Of a stretch of 64,000 bases of DNA, positions 3,964-62,668 are shown one piece after another. The first letter of the stretch is position 1. Each line of letters begins with the position of its first letter. Both the position numbers and the translations under genes were made by a program. The DNA is from Kiritimatiellia bacterium (GTDB lineage: Bacteria; Verrucomicrobiota; Kiritimatiellia; JAKQHR01), in NCBI GenBank assembly GCA_050178035.1, contig JBFXGK010000004.1, positions 3,009 to 67,008 of the forward strand. The letters run 5' to 3'. The notes under the pieces were generated by a model. That model did no database searches, was not told the origin of the DNA, and was given only the letters and a program-made list of their open reading frames with translations.

Positions 3964-4050
3964 AAAAGTTCCAATCCCTGGAACTTTTCTCTGAAAAACT
4001 TCCAATGATTGGAACTTTTCGGCGCAGATTTTCCAATGGTTGGAACTTTT
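3964..4050. repeat. three tandem 31-bp palindromic units (A-run / TTCCAAT-n-ATTGGAA-type stem / T-run) filling the queC-queF convergent spacer
   Basis: Cores start at 3969, 4000 and 4031, an exact 31-bp period. Unit 1 is a perfect 10-bp stem AAAAGTTCCA-ATCCC-TGGAACTTTT. The same element recurs at 60229-60314. Confidence 0.9.
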
Positions 4051-8920: not shown

Positions 8921-9006
8921 GGCTGTTTTCAGGCGTTTTTTGGCACTTTTAGGCCATTTTTGGCCGTTTTTGAGCATTTTTAGCCGTTTTTTGGCACTTT
9001 TGGGCC
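8921..9006 (+). repeat. phased T-tract array, 8 units of GGCNN-T4-6, about 10.3-bp period
   Basis: T-tract starts at 8926, 8936, 8947, 8957, 8967, 8977, 8987, 8998. Shares the exact 25-mer TTTTTGGCCGTTTTTGAGCATTTTT (8957-8981) with 40752-40776. Confidence 0.9.
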
Positions 9007-40736: not shown

Positions 40737-40830
40737 GGCGTTTTTTGATGATTTTTGGCCGTTTTTGAGCATTTTTTGGCCAATTATGGCCATTTTTTAC
40801 GATTTTTGGCCGTTTTTTGACGTTTTTCAG
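40737..40830 (+). repeat. phased T-tract array, about 9 units, about 10.3-bp period, filling the convergent spacer
   Basis: T-tract starts at 40741, 40752, 40762, 40772, (40784), 40793, 40803, 40813, 40823. 25-mer identical to 8957-8981. The last unit overlaps the AKR stop codon. Confidence 0.9.
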
Positions 40831-56910: not shown

Positions 56911-57704
56911 AAACCTGTCTGGTCACAGGCGCTAAAGGCTTCATCGGTTCGGCCATTGTTGCAGAGGCCGAACGCATGGGAGTTGAAGTCATTGCCGTTG
57001 ATCTCGACAACTATGAACAGGTCCGCGGCGCAAAGGCGGATATCCTGATCAATGCCGCAGGCAATTCGCGCAAGTTTATAGATGAACAGGACCCGACGCG
57101 CGGCTTCGAGCTTTCGGTCGCCTCCGTCATGCGCATTATGCTTGATTTCAAGTTCGGCCTTTTTGTGCATCTTTCGAGCGGCGCGATATATTCCAATGAA
57201 GGGAACCCGGCACTGAATACTGAGGTCACCGAACTCATGCCCTTGCAAATGACCCGTTACGGATTTCACAAGTGGCTTGCCGAGCAGATCGTCAGGCATT
57301 ATGCCCCGAAGCATCTCATCATACGCATGGGCGGATTTGTGGGCCCCGGCCTCAAAAAGAATGCCGTCTTTGACATTTTGACTGGAGGGCAGCTTTTTGT
57401 TCACCCCGATTCCGAGTTCCAATATATGGACACGCGCGATCTTGCAAGGCTTGTATTTGAACTGGCCGGGGGAGCAGCCGGAAACGAAACGATGTTCAAT
57501 CTCTCAGCCACGGGCACCGTCTCCGTTCGCAGGATTGCCGAATGGGCCGGATACAAGCTTGGACGCGATCCTCTGGGCTGCCCGACCGTCCGGGCGGAAC
57601 TGAATGTTGAAAAGGCCGGCCGTGTAGTTTCCCTCCCTGAAACCGGCGAGACTGTCCGTAAATTCATTGAGGAAGTCCAAAGCGGAAAGGTGAAACTGAA
57701 ATGA
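56907..57704 (+). CDS. NAD-dependent epimerase/dehydratase family protein
   Basis: MKTCLVTGAKGFIGSAI, YGFHKWLAE (YxxxK). ATGA overlap with the upstream gene. Confidence 0.75.
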   Translation: MKTCLVTGAKGFIGSAIVAEAERMGVEVIAVDLDNYEQVRGAKADILINAAGNSRKFIDEQDPTRGFELSVASVMRIMLDFKFGLFVHLSSGAIYSNEGNPALNTEVTELMPLQMTRYGFHKWLAEQIVRHYAPKHLIIRMGGFVGPGLKKNAVFDILTGGQLFVHPDSEFQYMDTRDLARLVFELAGGAAGNETMFNLSATGTVSVRRIAEWAGYKLGRDPLGCPTVRAELNVEKAGRVVSLPETGETVRKFIEEVQSGKVKLK

Positions 57705-58687
57705 TCATCTCGCGCACCCCTTTCAGAATCAGCTTCTTCGGCGGCGGAACGGACTTCCCGGGCTATTTCGCTCAGCACGGCGGGGCCGTTATTTCGGTCA
57801 GCATTGACAAGTATTGCTATCTCTCGGTTCACCATCTGACCAAATTCTTCAAGCATAACTATCGCGCCAGCTACTCCAAAACCGAATCCGTCATGAAGCC
57901 GGAGGAATTCGAGCATCCCCTGATCCGCGAAACACTTCTGCACCTCGGGATCAAAGAGGGGGTTGAAATTTCGCATGTGGCCGACCTGCCCGGACAGACC
58001 GGCCTGGGTTCATCGTCCTCGTTCACGGTCGGTCTGTTAAATTCACTCTGCGCCTTCACAAAAAAGCGCATTACACCCGAATGGCTGGCGCGTGCGGCCA
58101 TTGAAATCGAACGCGATCGCGTGAAGGATGCCGGAGGCTGGCAGGACCAGTATGCCGCGGCCTACGGTGGTTTCAACCGCATCAATTTCCACAAAGACCG
58201 CGAGGTGACGGTCCAGACTATCGGCATAGCGCCTGAAGCGCTGTTCCGACTGGAATCCTCGCTGATGCTCTTCTATTTCGGTTCAGAATGCTCCGCGGAA
58301 AAGATCCTTCGCGAGCAGATATCCCGGACAGCAGACAACACGGACCGGCTTTCAAAAATGCGCCAGATCGTGGATCACGCGGAGGACATCCTGCAGAACG
58401 GGAAGCATCTGGACGAATTCGGAAAACTTCTGCACGATACTTGGCTCCAGAAAAAGGAACTCTCATCAGGCATCAGCAATCCGGATATTGACCAGGCCTA
58501 TGAGTCCGCGCGCAAGGCCGGCGCCATTGGCGGGAAACTGCTGGGGGCCGGCGGACGCGGATTCCTTTGTTTGTATGCTCCATCGGAAAAACATGCCGCC
58601 ATCCGCGAGAAACTGAAGACTCTCAAAGAGGTTACATTCCATTTCAGCGAGGTCGGCAGCCAGATCATCTTCAACAGCGATGAGTAA
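57701..58687 (+). CDS. GHMP-family sugar kinase (HddA-like D-glycero-D-manno-heptose-7-phosphate kinase, or a fucokinase-like alternative)
   Basis: MIISRTPFRISFFGGGTD N-terminus, GHMP motif PGQTGLGSSSSFTVGL, C-terminal GGKLLGAGGRGFL. Confidence 0.75.
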   Translation: MIISRTPFRISFFGGGTDFPGYFAQHGGAVISVSIDKYCYLSVHHLTKFFKHNYRASYSKTESVMKPEEFEHPLIRETLLHLGIKEGVEISHVADLPGQTGLGSSSSFTVGLLNSLCAFTKKRITPEWLARAAIEIERDRVKDAGGWQDQYAAAYGGFNRINFHKDREVTVQTIGIAPEALFRLESSLMLFYFGSECSAEKILREQISRTADNTDRLSKMRQIVDHAEDILQNGKHLDEFGKLLHDTWLQKKELSSGISNPDIDQAYESARKAGAIGGKLLGAGGRGFLCLYAPSEKHAAIREKLKTLKEVTFHFSEVGSQIIFNSDE

Positions 58688-59876
58688 CAAAAGGCCCAGC
58701 ATTGCACTCTGGTTCAGGTACGGAGCCGCTGAACACAGCGAACTGTTCCATGCCCTGCCCGGCTGCATCCGCGAACTGTCAAAGCACTGCGAAGTGCATT
58801 ATTTCGGTCTTAAAACCCGGAAAACGATCCCGAACGAAATCCGGGAACATGCAATCATCCACGAGATGCCCTTTCGTGTGAACCGAGGCAGCAGCAGTGA
58901 CAAGATGGTGAAAACTATTTTGTGGATTTTATGCCTGCCGTTTGTCGGTATTTACTGCCGCGCCAAAGGAATGCGCGCTGTTTACATTGATGAAACGATC
59001 CCCTTCACCGCGCTCATCGCCCGCATCTTCGCCGGCCCCAATGTCGCGCTGACCGTGGCTGACTTTTTCGTGGATATCTATTTCACAGGTCCAGCGGACT
59101 TCATCGGCAAGGCCATCCGCAGACTCGACCTATGGTCATGGAAATTCGCCAGGCTCATTTTCACCCGCGCAAAAAGCACCAAGACATATCTTGCTTCGAA
59201 AGGCATTCGCCCGGAACACATCGTCCCTGTTTATGATCCCTGCGACATGAATGTCTATCGCCGGCTGAACCGGAACGAATGCAAGGCCGCCATGGGGTAC
59301 AAACCGGATGATATCGTGCTCGTGCATCACGGCATTCTTCATCCGAACAAGGGCAACGCCGCCATCATTCAGGCCATTTCTGAAATGCGAATCCGATATC
59401 CTTCGCTGCGTTATCTTCTAATTGGCGATGGACCCGAAATGAAGAATCTTACAACGCAGGTTGAGGAAATGAATGTGAAGGACATCTGCCGCCTTGCCGG
59501 ATGGCTCCCCTCGCCCGCGGATGTCAACCGTGCGCTGAATGCGGGGGACATTGGCCTCGTCATGCGGACAGGTGCGCAGTCTGATGATTTCCACATGACC
59601 GGCGCCCTCGTCCACAACATGGCTTGCGGTTTGCCAATCCTTGCGGCCCGATTGGGCGGCGTTTCGGAAGTGGTCGAGGAAAACCGGAACGGACTTCTTT
59701 TTGATCCCCGCAATATGGATGAATTCAAGCAGAAGCTGGCAAAATTTATTGAGGACGCGGAACTTCGCAACCATTGCGGACTTGAGGCGGAGAAGGATGC
59801 CCGCATACACTTTGATATGGACAGCGTAATCCGGCAGACCGTGGAACCGCTCGCAAAACTTGCGGGAGCAATATGA
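58680..59876 (+). CDS. glycosyltransferase family 4 (GT-B)
   Basis: C-terminal donor-binding region ACGLPILAARLGGVSEVVEENRNGLLFDP. 398 aa. Confidence 0.8.
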   Translation: MSNKRPSIALWFRYGAAEHSELFHALPGCIRELSKHCEVHYFGLKTRKTIPNEIREHAIIHEMPFRVNRGSSSDKMVKTILWILCLPFVGIYCRAKGMRAVYIDETIPFTALIARIFAGPNVALTVADFFVDIYFTGPADFIGKAIRRLDLWSWKFARLIFTRAKSTKTYLASKGIRPEHIVPVYDPCDMNVYRRLNRNECKAAMGYKPDDIVLVHHGILHPNKGNAAIIQAISEMRIRYPSLRYLLIGDGPEMKNLTTQVEEMNVKDICRLAGWLPSPADVNRALNAGDIGLVMRTGAQSDDFHMTGALVHNMACGLPILAARLGGVSEVVEENRNGLLFDPRNMDEFKQKLAKFIEDAELRNHCGLEAEKDARIHFDMDSVIRQTVEPLAKLAGAI

Positions 59877-60634
59877 GCAAAGGCATTCAGGCCATTCTGC
59901 TGGTCGGCGGCACAGGAACGCGGATACAGGCCGTGCATTCCGACCGGCCCAAGGGGCTGGTTCCCGTGGCGGGAAAACCGTTTCTTCAGTGGCAGGTGGA
60001 ATGGCTGACCTCACAGGGCATTTGCGATATTCACCTCGCAGCCGGACATCTCGGCGAACAACTTGTGCAGTGGGGCACAGATTACAGCACGTCACATCCG
60101 GGCATCCGGATCACCGCAAGCGTCGAACCGGAACGGCTGGGCACCGGCGGCGGCTTGAAATACATCGAGAACCAAATCCGTTCCGATCCGTTTCTGGTTT
60201 TGAACGGCGACAGCCTTGCGCCGAACCTGAAGTTCCAATCATTGGAAGTTTTTCACAAAAAAGTTCCAACCATTGGAAGTTTTTCGCCGAAAAGTTCCAA
60301 TCATTGGAAGTTTTCGATCGCGGTCACGCAGATCGAGGAATCTGGCCGCTACGGAACGGTTGAGTTCAACAAGGACGGGCTTGTCACAGCCTTCCGCGAA
60401 AAGGCGCAGCGCAATGCCGGCTGGATCAACGCCGGCGTTTATATGGTGGACCGCGGCATTCTCAGCCTTCTGGAACCTGGCCGCACATGCTCTTTGGAAA
60501 CCGAACTGTTTCCAAATCTTTGCGCAGACGGCAAACTGGCGGCATTCCCCTGCCCGGCCCCGCTGTTGGACATGGGTACACCAAACGGATTGAAAGTCAT
60601 GGAGGCTTTTCTCCATGGGCCCAAAACAATCTAG
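59873..60634 (+). CDS. sugar-1-phosphate nucleotidyltransferase (HddC-like guanylyltransferase) carrying an in-frame repeat insertion
   Basis: AILLVGGTGTRIQ, KGLVPVAGKPFL, EPERLGTGGGL, LVLNGDS, ESGRYGTVEF, INAGVYM. Residues KFQSLEVFHKKVPTIGSFSPKSSNHWKFS are encoded by the 3 x 31 bp repeat. Confidence 0.8.
   Translation: MSKGIQAILLVGGTGTRIQAVHSDRPKGLVPVAGKPFLQWQVEWLTSQGICDIHLAAGHLGEQLVQWGTDYSTSHPGIRITASVEPERLGTGGGLKYIENQIRSDPFLVLNGDSLAPNLKFQSLEVFHKKVPTIGSFSPKSSNHWKFSIAVTQIEESGRYGTVEFNKDGLVTAFREKAQRNAGWINAGVYMVDRGILSLLEPGRTCSLETELFPNLCADGKLAAFPCPAPLLDMGTPNGLKVMEAFLHGPKTI
60229..60314. repeat. three tandem 31-bp palindromic units (same family as 3964-4050) inside a CDS
   Basis: Cores TTCCAATCATTGGAA, TTCCAACCATTGGAA and TTCCAATCATTGGAA start at 60233, 60264 and 60295 (31-bp period), each flanked by an A-run and a T-run. 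Confidence 0.9.
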
Positions 60635-60688
60635 GCTTGCCCGCGCGTTCTGTCATCTATACTGTGCCTTTTTCGCTGGAGAGTGTTT

Positions 60689-62668
60689 ATGAAAATTTTG
60701 ATATTTGGCGGCTTTGGATACATTGGACAAGGTCTTGCGGCACGGCTGGAAGCCCGCGGGCATGAGGTCTTCCAGTTCAAGCGCGGAGAGCCCGGTCGCG
60801 ACGGCCATACGATTTACGGCGATGCAGAAAAGTTGCTGGAGAATCCGCACTTCCCGGAAAGGGTGGATATCGTTATCAATCTGGCGGTCTTGCGCGAGGC
60901 GTCAGTCGAACGCAACATGGAGTTCTGCCGGAACATAATGGCTCTGTGCCGGAGACTTCAGGCATCCACCCTCGTCCACACATCTTCTTGCAGTGTTCTG
61001 GCTTTTTCTGAACGTGTAATTTCCGAATCCAGCGCTGTTTTGCATGACTGGCAGAACCGGCCTGATTATGCGGCAGTGAAAATCGCCACTGACGACCTGC
61101 TGCGGGACATGCCAGAAGGCGAACGAGGCGGCGTGAAGGTAGTCTTTGTACGGCCCGGTTTCGTGCTCGCTCCCGGAGCGGTCAATGTGCTGGTCGGACT
61201 CGCTTCGCGCCTGCCCGGAGGAATGGCGCTGGTCCTGGGAAATCCAAAGCAGGATCTCTATCTGATTACCCGCGACAAGGTTCAGGAGGTGCTTGCAGGT
61301 GTTCTGGACCAGAATGATCTCCATCACGGCAACACATTCCTCGCCGTCGCGGCCAACTGCCCGAAGCGGGGCGACTACATCAAGCACTGCTGCCGCAGTT
61401 TGGGCCAGGCGCGCTGGTGCCTGCGCATGGGAGCCTGGTTCTGGTATCCCGTGGCGGGACTCGCCGAAGGCCTTTCGCGCCTGCTGGGCAAGGGTTCGCC
61501 ACGAATATTCCAGCGCGTATCGCTGACCTTCCGCAAAATCCGGTACGATGTCTCCGAAACATCCAGAAAGCTTGGGGTGGATCTGAACATTGACTGGCAG
61601 AAGGCCGTGCGCAAAGCCTATGACCAGCAGACCCCCAACTACACCTTGCCCGTCTACAAGACAGAAGGATCGCTTGCCGGTATTTCCCGCATCCTGTTTA
61701 TCGGCTTCGGGGGAATTGTGCGCCAGAAGCACATACCCGCTCTTGAACAGCTGGGTTTCAAGGGAACAGTGGATGTCTTCGACCCCTATTTGAAGGAGAT
61801 GCCCAAGACCAGGTTGAACTGCCAGCGCATTGAAGATCCCAAAGTCAGCGAGGCCGATCTGGTGGTCGTCACCACGCCCGGCCCTCTTCATACGCAGGCC
61901 ATCGGACAGATTCCGCCGAAGGCGCGGATGGTGATGGTTGAAAAGCCCTTGGTTACCCGGCAGGAAGACTGGTCCGCGTGGGCCGATTTTGAGAAGTCCC
62001 GCGGATGTCCTGTTCTGGTTATGCACAATTACCGGCTGAAGAAAAATCTGCTCCGGTTCTGCAATCTGCTGCGCAAATACAACGGGGGCGAACTGCTGAG
62101 CTGCCGGGTGGTGTTTGACACCGGTGCCATTCGCGGCGACTCACTTCGCTGGCACCGGAATGAACGAGCATCGCGGACGCTGCTCTACGATTTTGGCCTT
62201 CATTCTCTTGACGCGGCGTGCATGCTGGGACAGGACTACCAGGGCTTGGAAAACATCCGGTCGAAAACCAACCAGTTGGGCGAAACCAGTGAAATCGCCG
62301 GCCAGTTTAAATTCTCAAACTATCCGGTCACATTTCATCTTCGGCAGACGCATGGGATCGTTCGGCGCCATGTCTACTTCGAGTTTGTAAATTTCACAAT
62401 CCGGGTCACATTTTATCCAGACTCAGTAACCCTCCTGGCGGGTGACGACATGATTTTGAACCGGTTTTACGAGTTCTGGGGCGAGACCATGAACACGCTC
62501 GGAGTAGTGTTCAGCAAATTGCGGGGAAAAGAACACGACCCGTCCCATGTCCGCATGTATCAGGAAGCGGCGCTGGCCTTGAGAAACCAGACTGCTTCCC
62601 CCTTCTCTATGCAGGCTCTGGAGTCAACATATCGGGTTTTGGGAGACATCGCGGCGGCGGTCTATTAA
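60689..62668 (+). CDS. fusion protein: extended-SDR epimerase/dehydratase N-half plus Gfo/Idh/MocA oxidoreductase C-half
   Basis: MKILIFGGFGYIGQGL Rossmann motif at the N-terminus. Second Rossmann ILFIGFGGIVRQKHIPAL plus VMVEKPL at about aa 335-430. GGAGAG Shine-Dalgarno before ATG 60689. Confidence 0.7.
   Translation: MKILIFGGFGYIGQGLAARLEARGHEVFQFKRGEPGRDGHTIYGDAEKLLENPHFPERVDIVINLAVLREASVERNMEFCRNIMALCRRLQASTLVHTSSCSVLAFSERVISESSAVLHDWQNRPDYAAVKIATDDLLRDMPEGERGGVKVVFVRPGFVLAPGAVNVLVGLASRLPGGMALVLGNPKQDLYLITRDKVQEVLAGVLDQNDLHHGNTFLAVAANCPKRGDYIKHCCRSLGQARWCLRMGAWFWYPVAGLAEGLSRLLGKGSPRIFQRVSLTFRKIRYDVSETSRKLGVDLNIDWQKAVRKAYDQQTPNYTLPVYKTEGSLAGISRILFIGFGGIVRQKHIPALEQLGFKGTVDVFDPYLKEMPKTRLNCQRIEDPKVSEADLVVVTTPGPLHTQAIGQIPPKARMVMVEKPLVTRQEDWSAWADFEKSRGCPVLVMHNYRLKKNLLRFCNLLRKYNGGELLSCRVVFDTGAIRGDSLRWHRNERASRTLLYDFGLHSLDAACMLGQDYQGLENIRSKTNQLGETSEIAGQFKFSNYPVTFHLRQTHGIVRRHVYFEFVNFTIRVTFYPDSVTLLAGDDMILNRFYEFWGETMNTLGVVFSKLRGKEHDPSHVRMYQEAALALRNQTASPFSMQALESTYRVLGDIAAAVY

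Follow-up and report, generated by a model that had tools for sequence, protein, structure and literature searches.

The 64,000-nucleotide stretch of DNA analyzed here (hereafter the window) comes from a Kiritimatiellia bacterium (contig JBFXGK010000004.1 of assembly GCA_050178035.1) and contains, within an open reading frame (ORF) at 59873-60634 that encodes a sugar-1-phosphate nucleotidyltransferase, three copies of a palindrome placed at regular distances and translated in frame with the enzyme. This arrangement raises the question of what such an array is doing inside a conserved gene. The original prediction offered two answers, a mobile palindromic element tolerated as a surface insertion or a recently disrupted enzyme. 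The comparisons presented below favor a different answer, which we consider the probable one, namely that the in-gene segment is a vertically inherited and DNA-constrained copy of a Kiritimatiellia-wide, helically phased palindrome array that is superimposed on an intact, selected enzyme and that would serve as the docking site of a dimeric protein.

The 15-bp cores of the in-gene array (TTCCAAYCATTGGAA) begin at positions 60233, 60264, and 60295, at a spacing of exactly 31 bp, and the letters from 60230 to 60314 are AAG-TTCCAATCATTGGAA-GTTTTT-CACA-AAAAAG-TTCCAACCATTGGAA-GTTTTT-CGCCG-AAAAG-TTCCAATCATTGGAA-GTTTT, every core being bordered by A4-5-G to the left and by G-T4-5 to the right. Tandem Repeats Finder described the segment as a repeat of period 31 with 2.7 copies and 90% matches. 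Cores 1, 2, and 3 show 0, 1, and 0 mismatches, respectively, to TTCCAATNATTGGAA and thus belong to the palindrome family whose core this is. When up to two mismatches are allowed, the core occurs 7 times in the window (0.28 expected), including the array at 3964-4050, and the proposal that both places harbor the same repeat family was therefore borne out. The spacing of 31 bp exceeds a multiple of three by one (3 x 10 + 1), so that each core is read in its own phase, namely as FQSLE, VPTIGS, and SNHWK. In agreement with what had been claimed from the letters alone, the array is in frame and stop-free with one phase per unit, and it lies after the NGDS strand and before the IAVTQIE strand of the enzyme; in fact, no stop codon interrupts the units in any plus-strand frame, and one minus-strand frame is open as well.

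The idea of a recently disrupted enzyme did not hold. Orthologous loci were assembled into a set of 84, made up of the window, three more closely related metagenomic contigs, and 80 loci (40-83% identity) from genomes that each represent a species, namely Kiritimatiellia and metagenome-assembled genomes (MAGs) labelled Verrucomicrobiota, Lentisphaerae, or Spartobacteria. At all 84 loci the N- and C-terminal halves of the enzyme are in one open frame, the ratio of nonsynonymous to synonymous divergence (dN/dS) of the host gene outside the array is 0.12-0.18 when the window is compared with four relatives, and the orthologue alignment retains invariant columns at G12, G13, G15, T16, R17, K27, N111, G112, and D113, which belong to the catalytic motifs (G-G-x-G-T-R, K, and GD/NGD). 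A pseudogene was rejected on the basis of the intact frame at 84 of 84 loci and of the purifying selection. The Pfam NTP_transferase domain (PF00483) covers residues 7-240 with an E-value of 7e-23 (81.9 bits vs. a cut-off of 21.2), and the best sequence and fold matches were human GMPPB (7d72), Arabidopsis VTC1 (7x8j), and Yersinia HddC (6jq8 and 5xhw). The top NCBIfam matches, man1P guanylyltransferase and HddC, both stayed under their equivalog cut-offs (110.1 bits vs. 300 for HddC, NF049965), and the window nucleotidyltransferase can therefore be assigned at the family level only. As judged from its sequence, the host gene is an intact gene for a GDP-sugar-pyrophosphorylase-like enzyme under purifying selection. 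With the GDP-mannose pyrophosphorylases and HddC-type guanylyltransferases of known structure it has in common the fold and the catalytic motifs, and it adjoins a gene for an HddA-like GHMP kinase; it differs from these enzymes in a helix-to-strand linker that is about 12 residues longer, owing to units 2 and 3, and in scores far under the equivalog cut-offs.

What the array adds to the protein was examined on an AlphaFold2 model of the window protein, which was built from an alignment of just 26 sequences, many of them with units, and which reached a mean predicted local distance difference test (pLDDT) value of 87 and a predicted template modeling score of 0.88. Unit 1 (residues 121-130, FQSLEVFHKK) forms a confident helix in this model, with a mean pLDDT of 92 as compared with 94 for the preceding block (residues 111-120), units 2 and 3 (residues 131-146) are coil with values under 50 at residues 133-143, and the strand that follows the array comprises residues 147-154 (FSIAVTQI). 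The helix equivalent to unit 1 reads FPFQAMVQFH in human GMPPB, where FQAMVQFH aligns with core 1, and LDFxxLxxAHRxx in the orthologues that lack units. Units 2 and 3 are predicted to form a disordered surface loop at a permissive site of a functional protein, and to this extent the proposal of a surface insertion was supported; an in-frame, stop-free peptide at a structurally permissive site is also what would be seen with a Rickettsia palindromic element (RPE) or an in-frame miniature inverted-repeat transposable element (MITE). The segment from NGDS to GRYGT has 52 residues in the window and 40 in about 30 "empty" orthologues. The array had been taken to add 31 codons (93 nt) and thereby to preserve the frame; the frame is indeed kept, but the net gain is just 12 residues (36 nt), because the codons under unit 1 are those of the native helix and the native linker gives way to units 2 and 3.

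Palindrome units are a recurrent property of this site. About 50 of the 84 loci carry 1-7 units, in 30 configurations, and some 30-32 are unit-free at the native length. Units of the form TTCCAA-N3-TTGGAA (AA-type) are read as FQ(S/R)LE, P(I/T/M)IGK, and SN(H/D)WK, and units of the form TTCCAC-N3-GTGGAA (AC-type), which are carried by a well-supported clade (Shimodaira-Hasegawa-like approximate likelihood ratio test 100), as FSTLWK, FHAVEK, and FP(R/Q/H)CGK. A homologous peptide at this site in distant orthologues had been regarded as incompatible with an inserted element, and orthologues at 40-60% identity do carry such peptides; since these are translations of one palindrome in three phases, it is the DNA element that is conserved and not a protein motif. 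One or two units are present at native-like length in L012 and L022 (40 residues, each with a single unit), L060 (38 residues), and L070 (41 residues), so that in these orthologues the palindrome replaces native sequence and adds nothing. The distance from the N codon of NGDS to the first core is 30-33 nt almost throughout the occupied orthologues, the exceptions being L034, L070, and two orthologues with a second-position unit only, and the array appears to have grown rightwards, into the linker. Over the orthologues the core spacings are 22 (24 times), 30 (7 times), 31 (52 times), 32 (13 times), and 127 bp (once), all of which deviate from whole helical turns by about 1 bp at most, as is characteristic of the family, and stepwise changes in array length leave the reading frame and the whole-turn spacing intact.

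The constraint on the DNA itself was most evident among close relatives. The three-unit architecture is identical in five independent assemblies, i.e. the window, a GenBank MAG (L001), and Logan (L083), JGI (L084), and ENA (L085) contigs. Outside the array, synonymous divergence (dS) in this set is 0.6-1.0, near saturation (0.31 for the nearly identical pair L001-L084). Variable sites amount to 12 of 90 inside the array vs. 235 of 660 outside (p 1.2e-5), and variable third codon positions to 6 of 30 vs. 148 of 220 (p 1.1e-6); the proportion of synonymous differences is 0.00-0.31 inside and 0.26-0.56 outside. Accordingly, identity between the window and its relatives is 0.93-0.97 in the array and 0.80-0.85 and 0.78-0.83 in the left and right flanks, respectively (adjacent 75-200 nt). 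The changes that do occur affect the spacers and position 7 of the core (T/C), which is also degenerate genome-wide; the cores are fixed while the spacers diverge by point changes. The conserved codons are disfavored ones, with shares of their synonymous sets of 0.12 (CAA), 0.08 (TCA), 0.07 (TTG), 0.11 (CCA), 0.18 (GGA), and 0.07 (AGT), and the GC content at third codon positions is 0.40 in the array vs. 0.68 in the remainder of the gene. The conservation of synonymous sites in spite of disfavored codons indicates that the array is not neutral loop filler.

The same palindrome is abundant elsewhere in the genome. A census of the window's own genome assembly (G000; 2.96 Mb, 33 contigs, 57.5% GC) yielded 232 cores in 105 clusters. 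Among these are 67 multi-unit arrays: 14 of two units, 48 of exactly three (spaced 31 + 31 bp), 3 of four, and 2 of five. As 48 of the 67 arrays consist of three units, this number represents the standard form of the array and not an adaptation to coding. The consensus unit in this genome is AAAA-S-TTCCAAT-S-ATTGGAA-S-TTTT, followed by 4-6 unconserved GC-rich bases, and the broader family is defined by a TTCCA-N5-TGGAA core flanked by A and T tracts, with a typical period of 31 bp. Only three multi-unit arrays are in frame inside genes of G000, the window array and two five-unit arrays in RCC1-like genes, according to heuristic gene calls that used an in-house log-odds score of codon usage, with long ORFs as the training set; the other arrays lie in short intergenic gaps, in approximate numbers 40 tandem, 15 divergent, and 10 convergent. 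The five-unit arrays, together with the 1-7 units of the orthologues, contradict the suggestion that intragenic copies always have unit numbers divisible by three. Class-wide, 13 of 41 genomes, namely G000 and 12 relatives, have 35-1815 copies of the core, as compared with 0-8 for a reversed control pattern.

The two in-frame arrays in RCC1-like genes (C1:450556-450704, L101, and C2:220464-220612, L102) belong to paralogous, secreted-looking RCC1-repeat proteins of 2149 and 1836 residues, in which the array occupies residues ~160-212, before the RCC1 domain, and encodes a peptide of the form VPMVG..SNDWN..FQSLEK..VPTIGK..SNHWK. Among 150 perfect AA-type cores of G000, the flanking S bases are identical (G..G or C..C) in 77 and complementary in 35, and where they are identical the center base is usually their complement (59 vs. 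18); the units are therefore polar, a property not required of a simple dyad site. In several relatives many cores are located at contig ends.

The in-gene array follows the genome-wide family both in its type and in its presence. In all, about 130 genomes were scored for presence of the family and for the AA- or AC-type. The 10 genomes with AA-type in-gene units hold 45-326 AA-type and 0-3 AC-type cores, and the 8 genomes with AC-type in-gene units hold 60-190 AC-type and 0-1 AA-type cores, so that the two types agree in 18 of 18 typed genomes. When the family was scored as present at a threshold of at least 35 TTCCA-N5-TGGAA cores per genome, the gene was found to be occupied in 42 and empty in 9 of the family-bearing genomes among the 70 typed genomes on the tree, and occupied in none and empty in 19 of those where the family is absent. 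The sole empty member of the AC clade (L043) has 27 cores in its genome, and its segment is GC-rich and free of any relic of units. These genome comparisons show a coupling, in type and in presence, of the in-gene array to the genome-wide family.

The positions of arrays are also retained between species. When 14 arrays of the congeneric genome G041, from which L001 derives, were compared with G000, 20 of their 28 flanks were found to abut a G000 array, and 7-8 of these arrays are conserved on both sides, mostly with equal unit number. Taking the orthologous loci, the close relatives, and these conserved positions into account, the alignments show the in-gene array to be, to all appearances, old and vertically inherited. 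One G041 array (L091) has its left flank from the neighbor of G000 C20:37394-37470 and its right flank from the neighbor of C9:8787-8863, a junction that points to rearrangement at arrays or else to a chimera in the assembly; arrays may thus coincide with synteny breakpoints or give rise to chimeric joins in MAGs.

Taken together, these results are consistent with the following scheme. The helix codons for F-Q-x-L (TTC CAA nnn TTG) would have provided a near-site that became a full palindrome site, and further units would then have arisen by duplication rightwards into the permissive linker. The constraint that keeps the cores would come from a putative dimeric, sequence-specific DNA-binding protein docking on one face of the helix, in genes as well as between them. 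Whole-turn spacing and the lack of preference for orientation or context argue for recognition of the duplex over a role at the RNA level. A far-reaching version of this scheme, which we regard as tentative and rather less likely than not to apply in full, is that a class-wide docking-array system has been imposed on coding DNA, the in-gene array having co-evolved with specificity (AA- to AC-type) over dozens of lineages, overridden codon usage, and dictated 12-46 extra residues; the array might also serve cassette exchange as a boundary or recombination junction, given its location at the conserved/variable border of a glycan gene cluster and within a mosaic patch.

That patch is seen when L001 and L084 are compared, which are 97-99% identical upstream and downstream but 78% identical over ~370 bp containing the array (gene nt ~150-520, with the array at 354-444), where L084 matches L085 at 95-98%; between gene nt 200 and 500, 41 sites have L084 = L085 and none L084 = L001. 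Either recombination or conversion has produced a tract across the array, or the assembly is a chimera of strains, with the switch at the repeat they share.

Several observations weigh against a vertically inherited array kept by a protein that docks on duplex DNA. The exchange between lineages suggested by the mosaic patch could inflate conservation in some pairs. In L084 the two spacers of the array are identical, and so they are in L085, but the spacer sequence is not the same at the two loci, a sign of intra-array conversion, and homogenization therefore contributes to the "perfect" cores. The register of the first core varies by clade (offsets of 30, 31, and 32-33), which means that indels or re-creation are needed and that point mutation alone is insufficient. 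Nine family-bearing genomes have empty orthologues, most of them in a deep clade whose helix lacks F-Q. The association of occupancy with family presence gives a raw Fisher p of 1e-10 that ignores kinship, and as it comprises only 3 well-supported, phylogenetically independent contrasts, the counts given above describe a pattern and are neither a formal test nor independent evidence. The sense strand of 60215-60330 folds as RNA at -39.4 kcal/mol (z -4.9, with 0 of 200 shuffles as good), and the palindromy, the covarying inner positions, and this stable mRNA fold would fit a single-strand or RNA role as well. Finally, the sample consists entirely of MAGs and metagenomic contigs.

The main rival explanation, which we judge unlikely though by no means negligible, is that of a selfish or mobile palindromic element, similar to repetitive extragenic palindromic (REP) sequences, RPEs, or MITEs, that was inserted, perhaps more than once, at a hot spot in this gene, tolerated in the loop, and kept uniform by gene conversion with other copies in the genome. 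The high copy number of the family and its patchiness even within genera (7 vs. 229 and 206 vs. 13 copies) would be expected of such an element, and the in-frame copies in three G000 genes occupy loop or linker regions as in Rickettsia (PMC10969869). The clade-specific registers of the first core and the intra-array conversion can also be read in this way, as can the array at a synteny breakpoint (L091) and the Y1-transposase-like genes in the genome. However, an inserted block does not account for the length of the segment, since the change is 36 nt and not 93, unit 1 consists of native-helix sequence, and L012 and L022 have a single unit without exceeding the native length. The conservation of array positions between species at a dS of ~1, with cores fixed while spacers diverge, likewise speaks against mobility. 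Thus, of the idea of a mobile element tolerated on the surface, the low-confidence surface loop in an otherwise confident fold was confirmed, and the mobility was not: target-site duplications, shared spacers, and a linked transposase were all missing, and array positions are conserved between species of the genus.

No target-site duplications, terminal repeats, or duplicated flank were found at the in-gene array. When the spacers of 46 three-unit arrays (4-6 nt each) were compared, 70 pairs had at least 8 of 12 matches vs. 35 expected, a weak excess beyond which spacers are unshared, and copy-paste of a 93-bp element was rejected, no near-identical copies having appeared in this comparison. 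The discrete block insertion of an RPE or in-frame MITE was not recovered either, given the 36-nt gain for a 93-nt array, the unshared spacers, and the single units at native length. With respect to a transposase, Pfam Y1_Tnp (PF01797) has two matches in G000, the nearest array is 1.3 kb away, and no pair of arrays flanks either gene. Homologues of the better Y1_Tnp gene are equally frequent in motif-rich (8 of 13) and motif-poor (15 of 28) genomes and are absent from G001 and G010, the genome with 1815 cores being among those without them; mobilization by a REP-associated tyrosine transposase (RAYT) or IS200-like enzyme was accordingly rejected as the driver, the Y1 genes being neither array-flanked nor co-distributed. 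The two Y1 (IS200/RAYT-like) ORFs of G000 (C6:31473-32507, minus strand, and C15:53181-54302, plus strand) span ~345-374 residues from stop to stop and have long C-terminal extensions, and Y1_Tnp homologues are multi-copy in many relatives, with a distribution unrelated to the palindrome family.

An RNA-level element, in which mRNA hairpins would modulate translation speed, mRNA stability, or intragenic termination, appears improbable to us. Besides the stable fold of the sense RNA, it would explain why inner palindrome positions covary between clades (AAT/ATT vs. ACG/CGT, with G-T combinations on one strand) and why T runs follow the units. On the other hand, arrays occur alike in convergent, tandem, and divergent contexts (10/40/15), many of them without a defined transcript orientation, their spacings cluster at whole turns (22, 31, and 127), which is a property of duplex DNA, and in many orthologues A runs and not U runs come after the cores. 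A simple scan for terminator and promoter consensus sequences detected no site inside the in-gene array. It is still harder to regard the FQSLE/PTIGS/SNHWK loop as a selected regulatory or interaction peptide: although many orthologues have these peptides at the corresponding site, one DNA word is used in all three phases, the number and order of units vary freely, synonymous sites are conserved, most genomic copies are noncoding, the loop is predicted to be disordered, and ~32 of the 84 orthologous loci are unit-free at native length. An assembly artefact or a decaying pseudogene can practically be dismissed, because, even though short repeats can mislead metagenome assemblers, the same three-unit architecture was recovered in five independent assemblies and the frame is open, with dN/dS 0.12-0.18 and intact catalytic motifs.

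The closest phenomenon described so far is that of the RPEs, ~100-bp palindromic DNAs that also occur between genes and that are found in frame in unrelated metabolic genes, where the palindromic repeat encodes a fold-compatible peptide and the gene remains functional (PMC10969869). RPEs are, however, discrete elements of ~150 bp with a full-length consensus and are read as insertions, whereas the array studied here consists of 15-bp cores and unshared spacers, is in part native helix, comprises 1-7 units, and shows synonymous-site conservation, helical phasing, and co-variation with the genome-wide type across the class. REP sequences and bacterial interspersed mosaic elements (BIMEs) with their RAYTs are similar in being short imperfect palindromes with hundreds of copies in regular clusters, mostly extragenic and sometimes at rearrangement points. 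REP/RAYT systems have a conserved GTAG or CGTC tetranucleotide tag 5' at the hairpin foot (PMC3733652), and neither tag is present in the G000 consensus unit. The Kiritimatiellia arrays differ from REP/BIME elements in lacking this tag and a co-distributed Y1 gene, in not being depleted from divergent (promoter) regions, and in their conserved positions. Palindromic amphipathic repeat coding elements (PARCELs) are palindromic DNA repeats translated within proteins and, as summarized in PMC2996958, are intragenic tandem repeats with surface phenotypes and not a mostly intergenic, phased 15-bp family.

Lrp/AsnC box clusters and NrdR box pairs are helically phased operator arrays of oligomerizing DNA-binding proteins. 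By analogy with these, the palindrome family may be seen as dyad sites at whole-turn spacings (21-22 and 31-32 bp) for dimers on one face of the helix, with symmetric half-site changes between lineages; it differs from them in that the Kiritimatiellia arrays are genome-wide (65 to >1000 sites), in all intergenic contexts and in genes, and do not form a small regulon. The motif strings of the family were in none of the papers of the searched literature, and no paper combining Kiritimatiellia and palindromic repeats was among the top-listed literature matches.

The gene is embedded in an operon-like region (Table 1) that is partly conserved. Upstream of the nucleotidyltransferase gene there is synteny with close relatives at 77-85% nucleotide identity, and the order with an HddA-like kinase upstream is kept in L084 and L085. 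Downstream, blastn gave no match in L001, L083, or L084, and the neighbors differ, being the epimerase/GFO-IDH-MocA fusion in the window, DegT and radical SAM genes in L084, and a convergent GT2 gene in L083. The synteny upstream and the non-homologous sequence downstream place the gene and its array at the edge of a variable glycan-cassette region. The most diverged part of the nucleotidyltransferase gene is its 3' third (67-75% identity). The 661-residue product of the downstream fusion gene has an N-terminal NAD-dependent epimerase/dehydratase domain and a GFO/IDH/MocA oxidoreductase domain. A second, unrelated repeat is found at 8921-9005 and 40739-40827 of the window where decamers similar to TTTTTGGCCN follow one another in runs, with a period of 10-11 bp and phased T tracts; a loose two-unit pattern of it (at most 3 mismatches) gives a raw count of 242 matches on one genome strand, often clustered.

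Table 1. Positions in the window of the palindrome arrays, the in-gene cores, and the genes around them
Feature	Coordinates	Strand	Evidence or remark
Three-unit intergenic array of the same palindrome family	3964..4050		Between convergent genes
GHMP-family sugar kinase (HddA-like), upstream operon partner	57701..58687	+	Pfam PF00288/PF08544; NCBIfam HddA 137 bits, cut-off 600
GT1 glycosyltransferase, 4-nt overlap with the nucleotidyltransferase start	58680..59876	+	ORF and Pfam
Sugar-1-phosphate nucleotidyltransferase (253 aa, GDP-mannose pyrophosphorylase/HddC-like), array host	59873..60634	+	Pfam PF00483
Three-unit 31-bp-phased palindrome array, in frame	60230..60314	+	Codons K120 to ~F147
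Core 1, TTCCAATCATTGGAA	60233..60247	+	Phase 0, F121-Q-S-L-E125, over native helix 121-130
Core 2, TTCCAACCATTGGAA	60264..60278	+	Phase 2, (V)PTIG(S), in the extra loop
Core 3, TTCCAATCATTGGAA	60295..60309	+	Phase 1, SNHWK, end of the extra loop ahead of strand 147-154
Epimerase/GFO-IDH-MocA fusion gene, downstream	60683..62668	+	Pfam; flank not conserved in close relatives

In-frame palindromic repeats are usually interpreted as tolerated selfish DNA, the RPEs of Rickettsia being the model case. The locus described here provides, at one orthologous site, a natural experiment over ~80 genomes in which conservation is stronger for the palindromes than for the protein encoded by them, and two codes, that of a protein and that of a DNA site, would be written on one stretch of sequence. 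Peptides such as FQSLE/PIIGK/SNHWK or FSTLWK/FHAVEK/FPRCGK in proteins of the Planctomycetes-Verrucomicrobia-Chlamydiae (PVC) group should accordingly be annotated with caution, as they are translated DNA motifs. With its permissive loop and variants of 0-7 units in one and the same gene, the nucleotidyltransferase would constitute a convenient test bed for the family. The switch of type and the absence of units in step with the genome-wide family may be counted among the clearest comparative evidence for such arrays as functional DNA signals.

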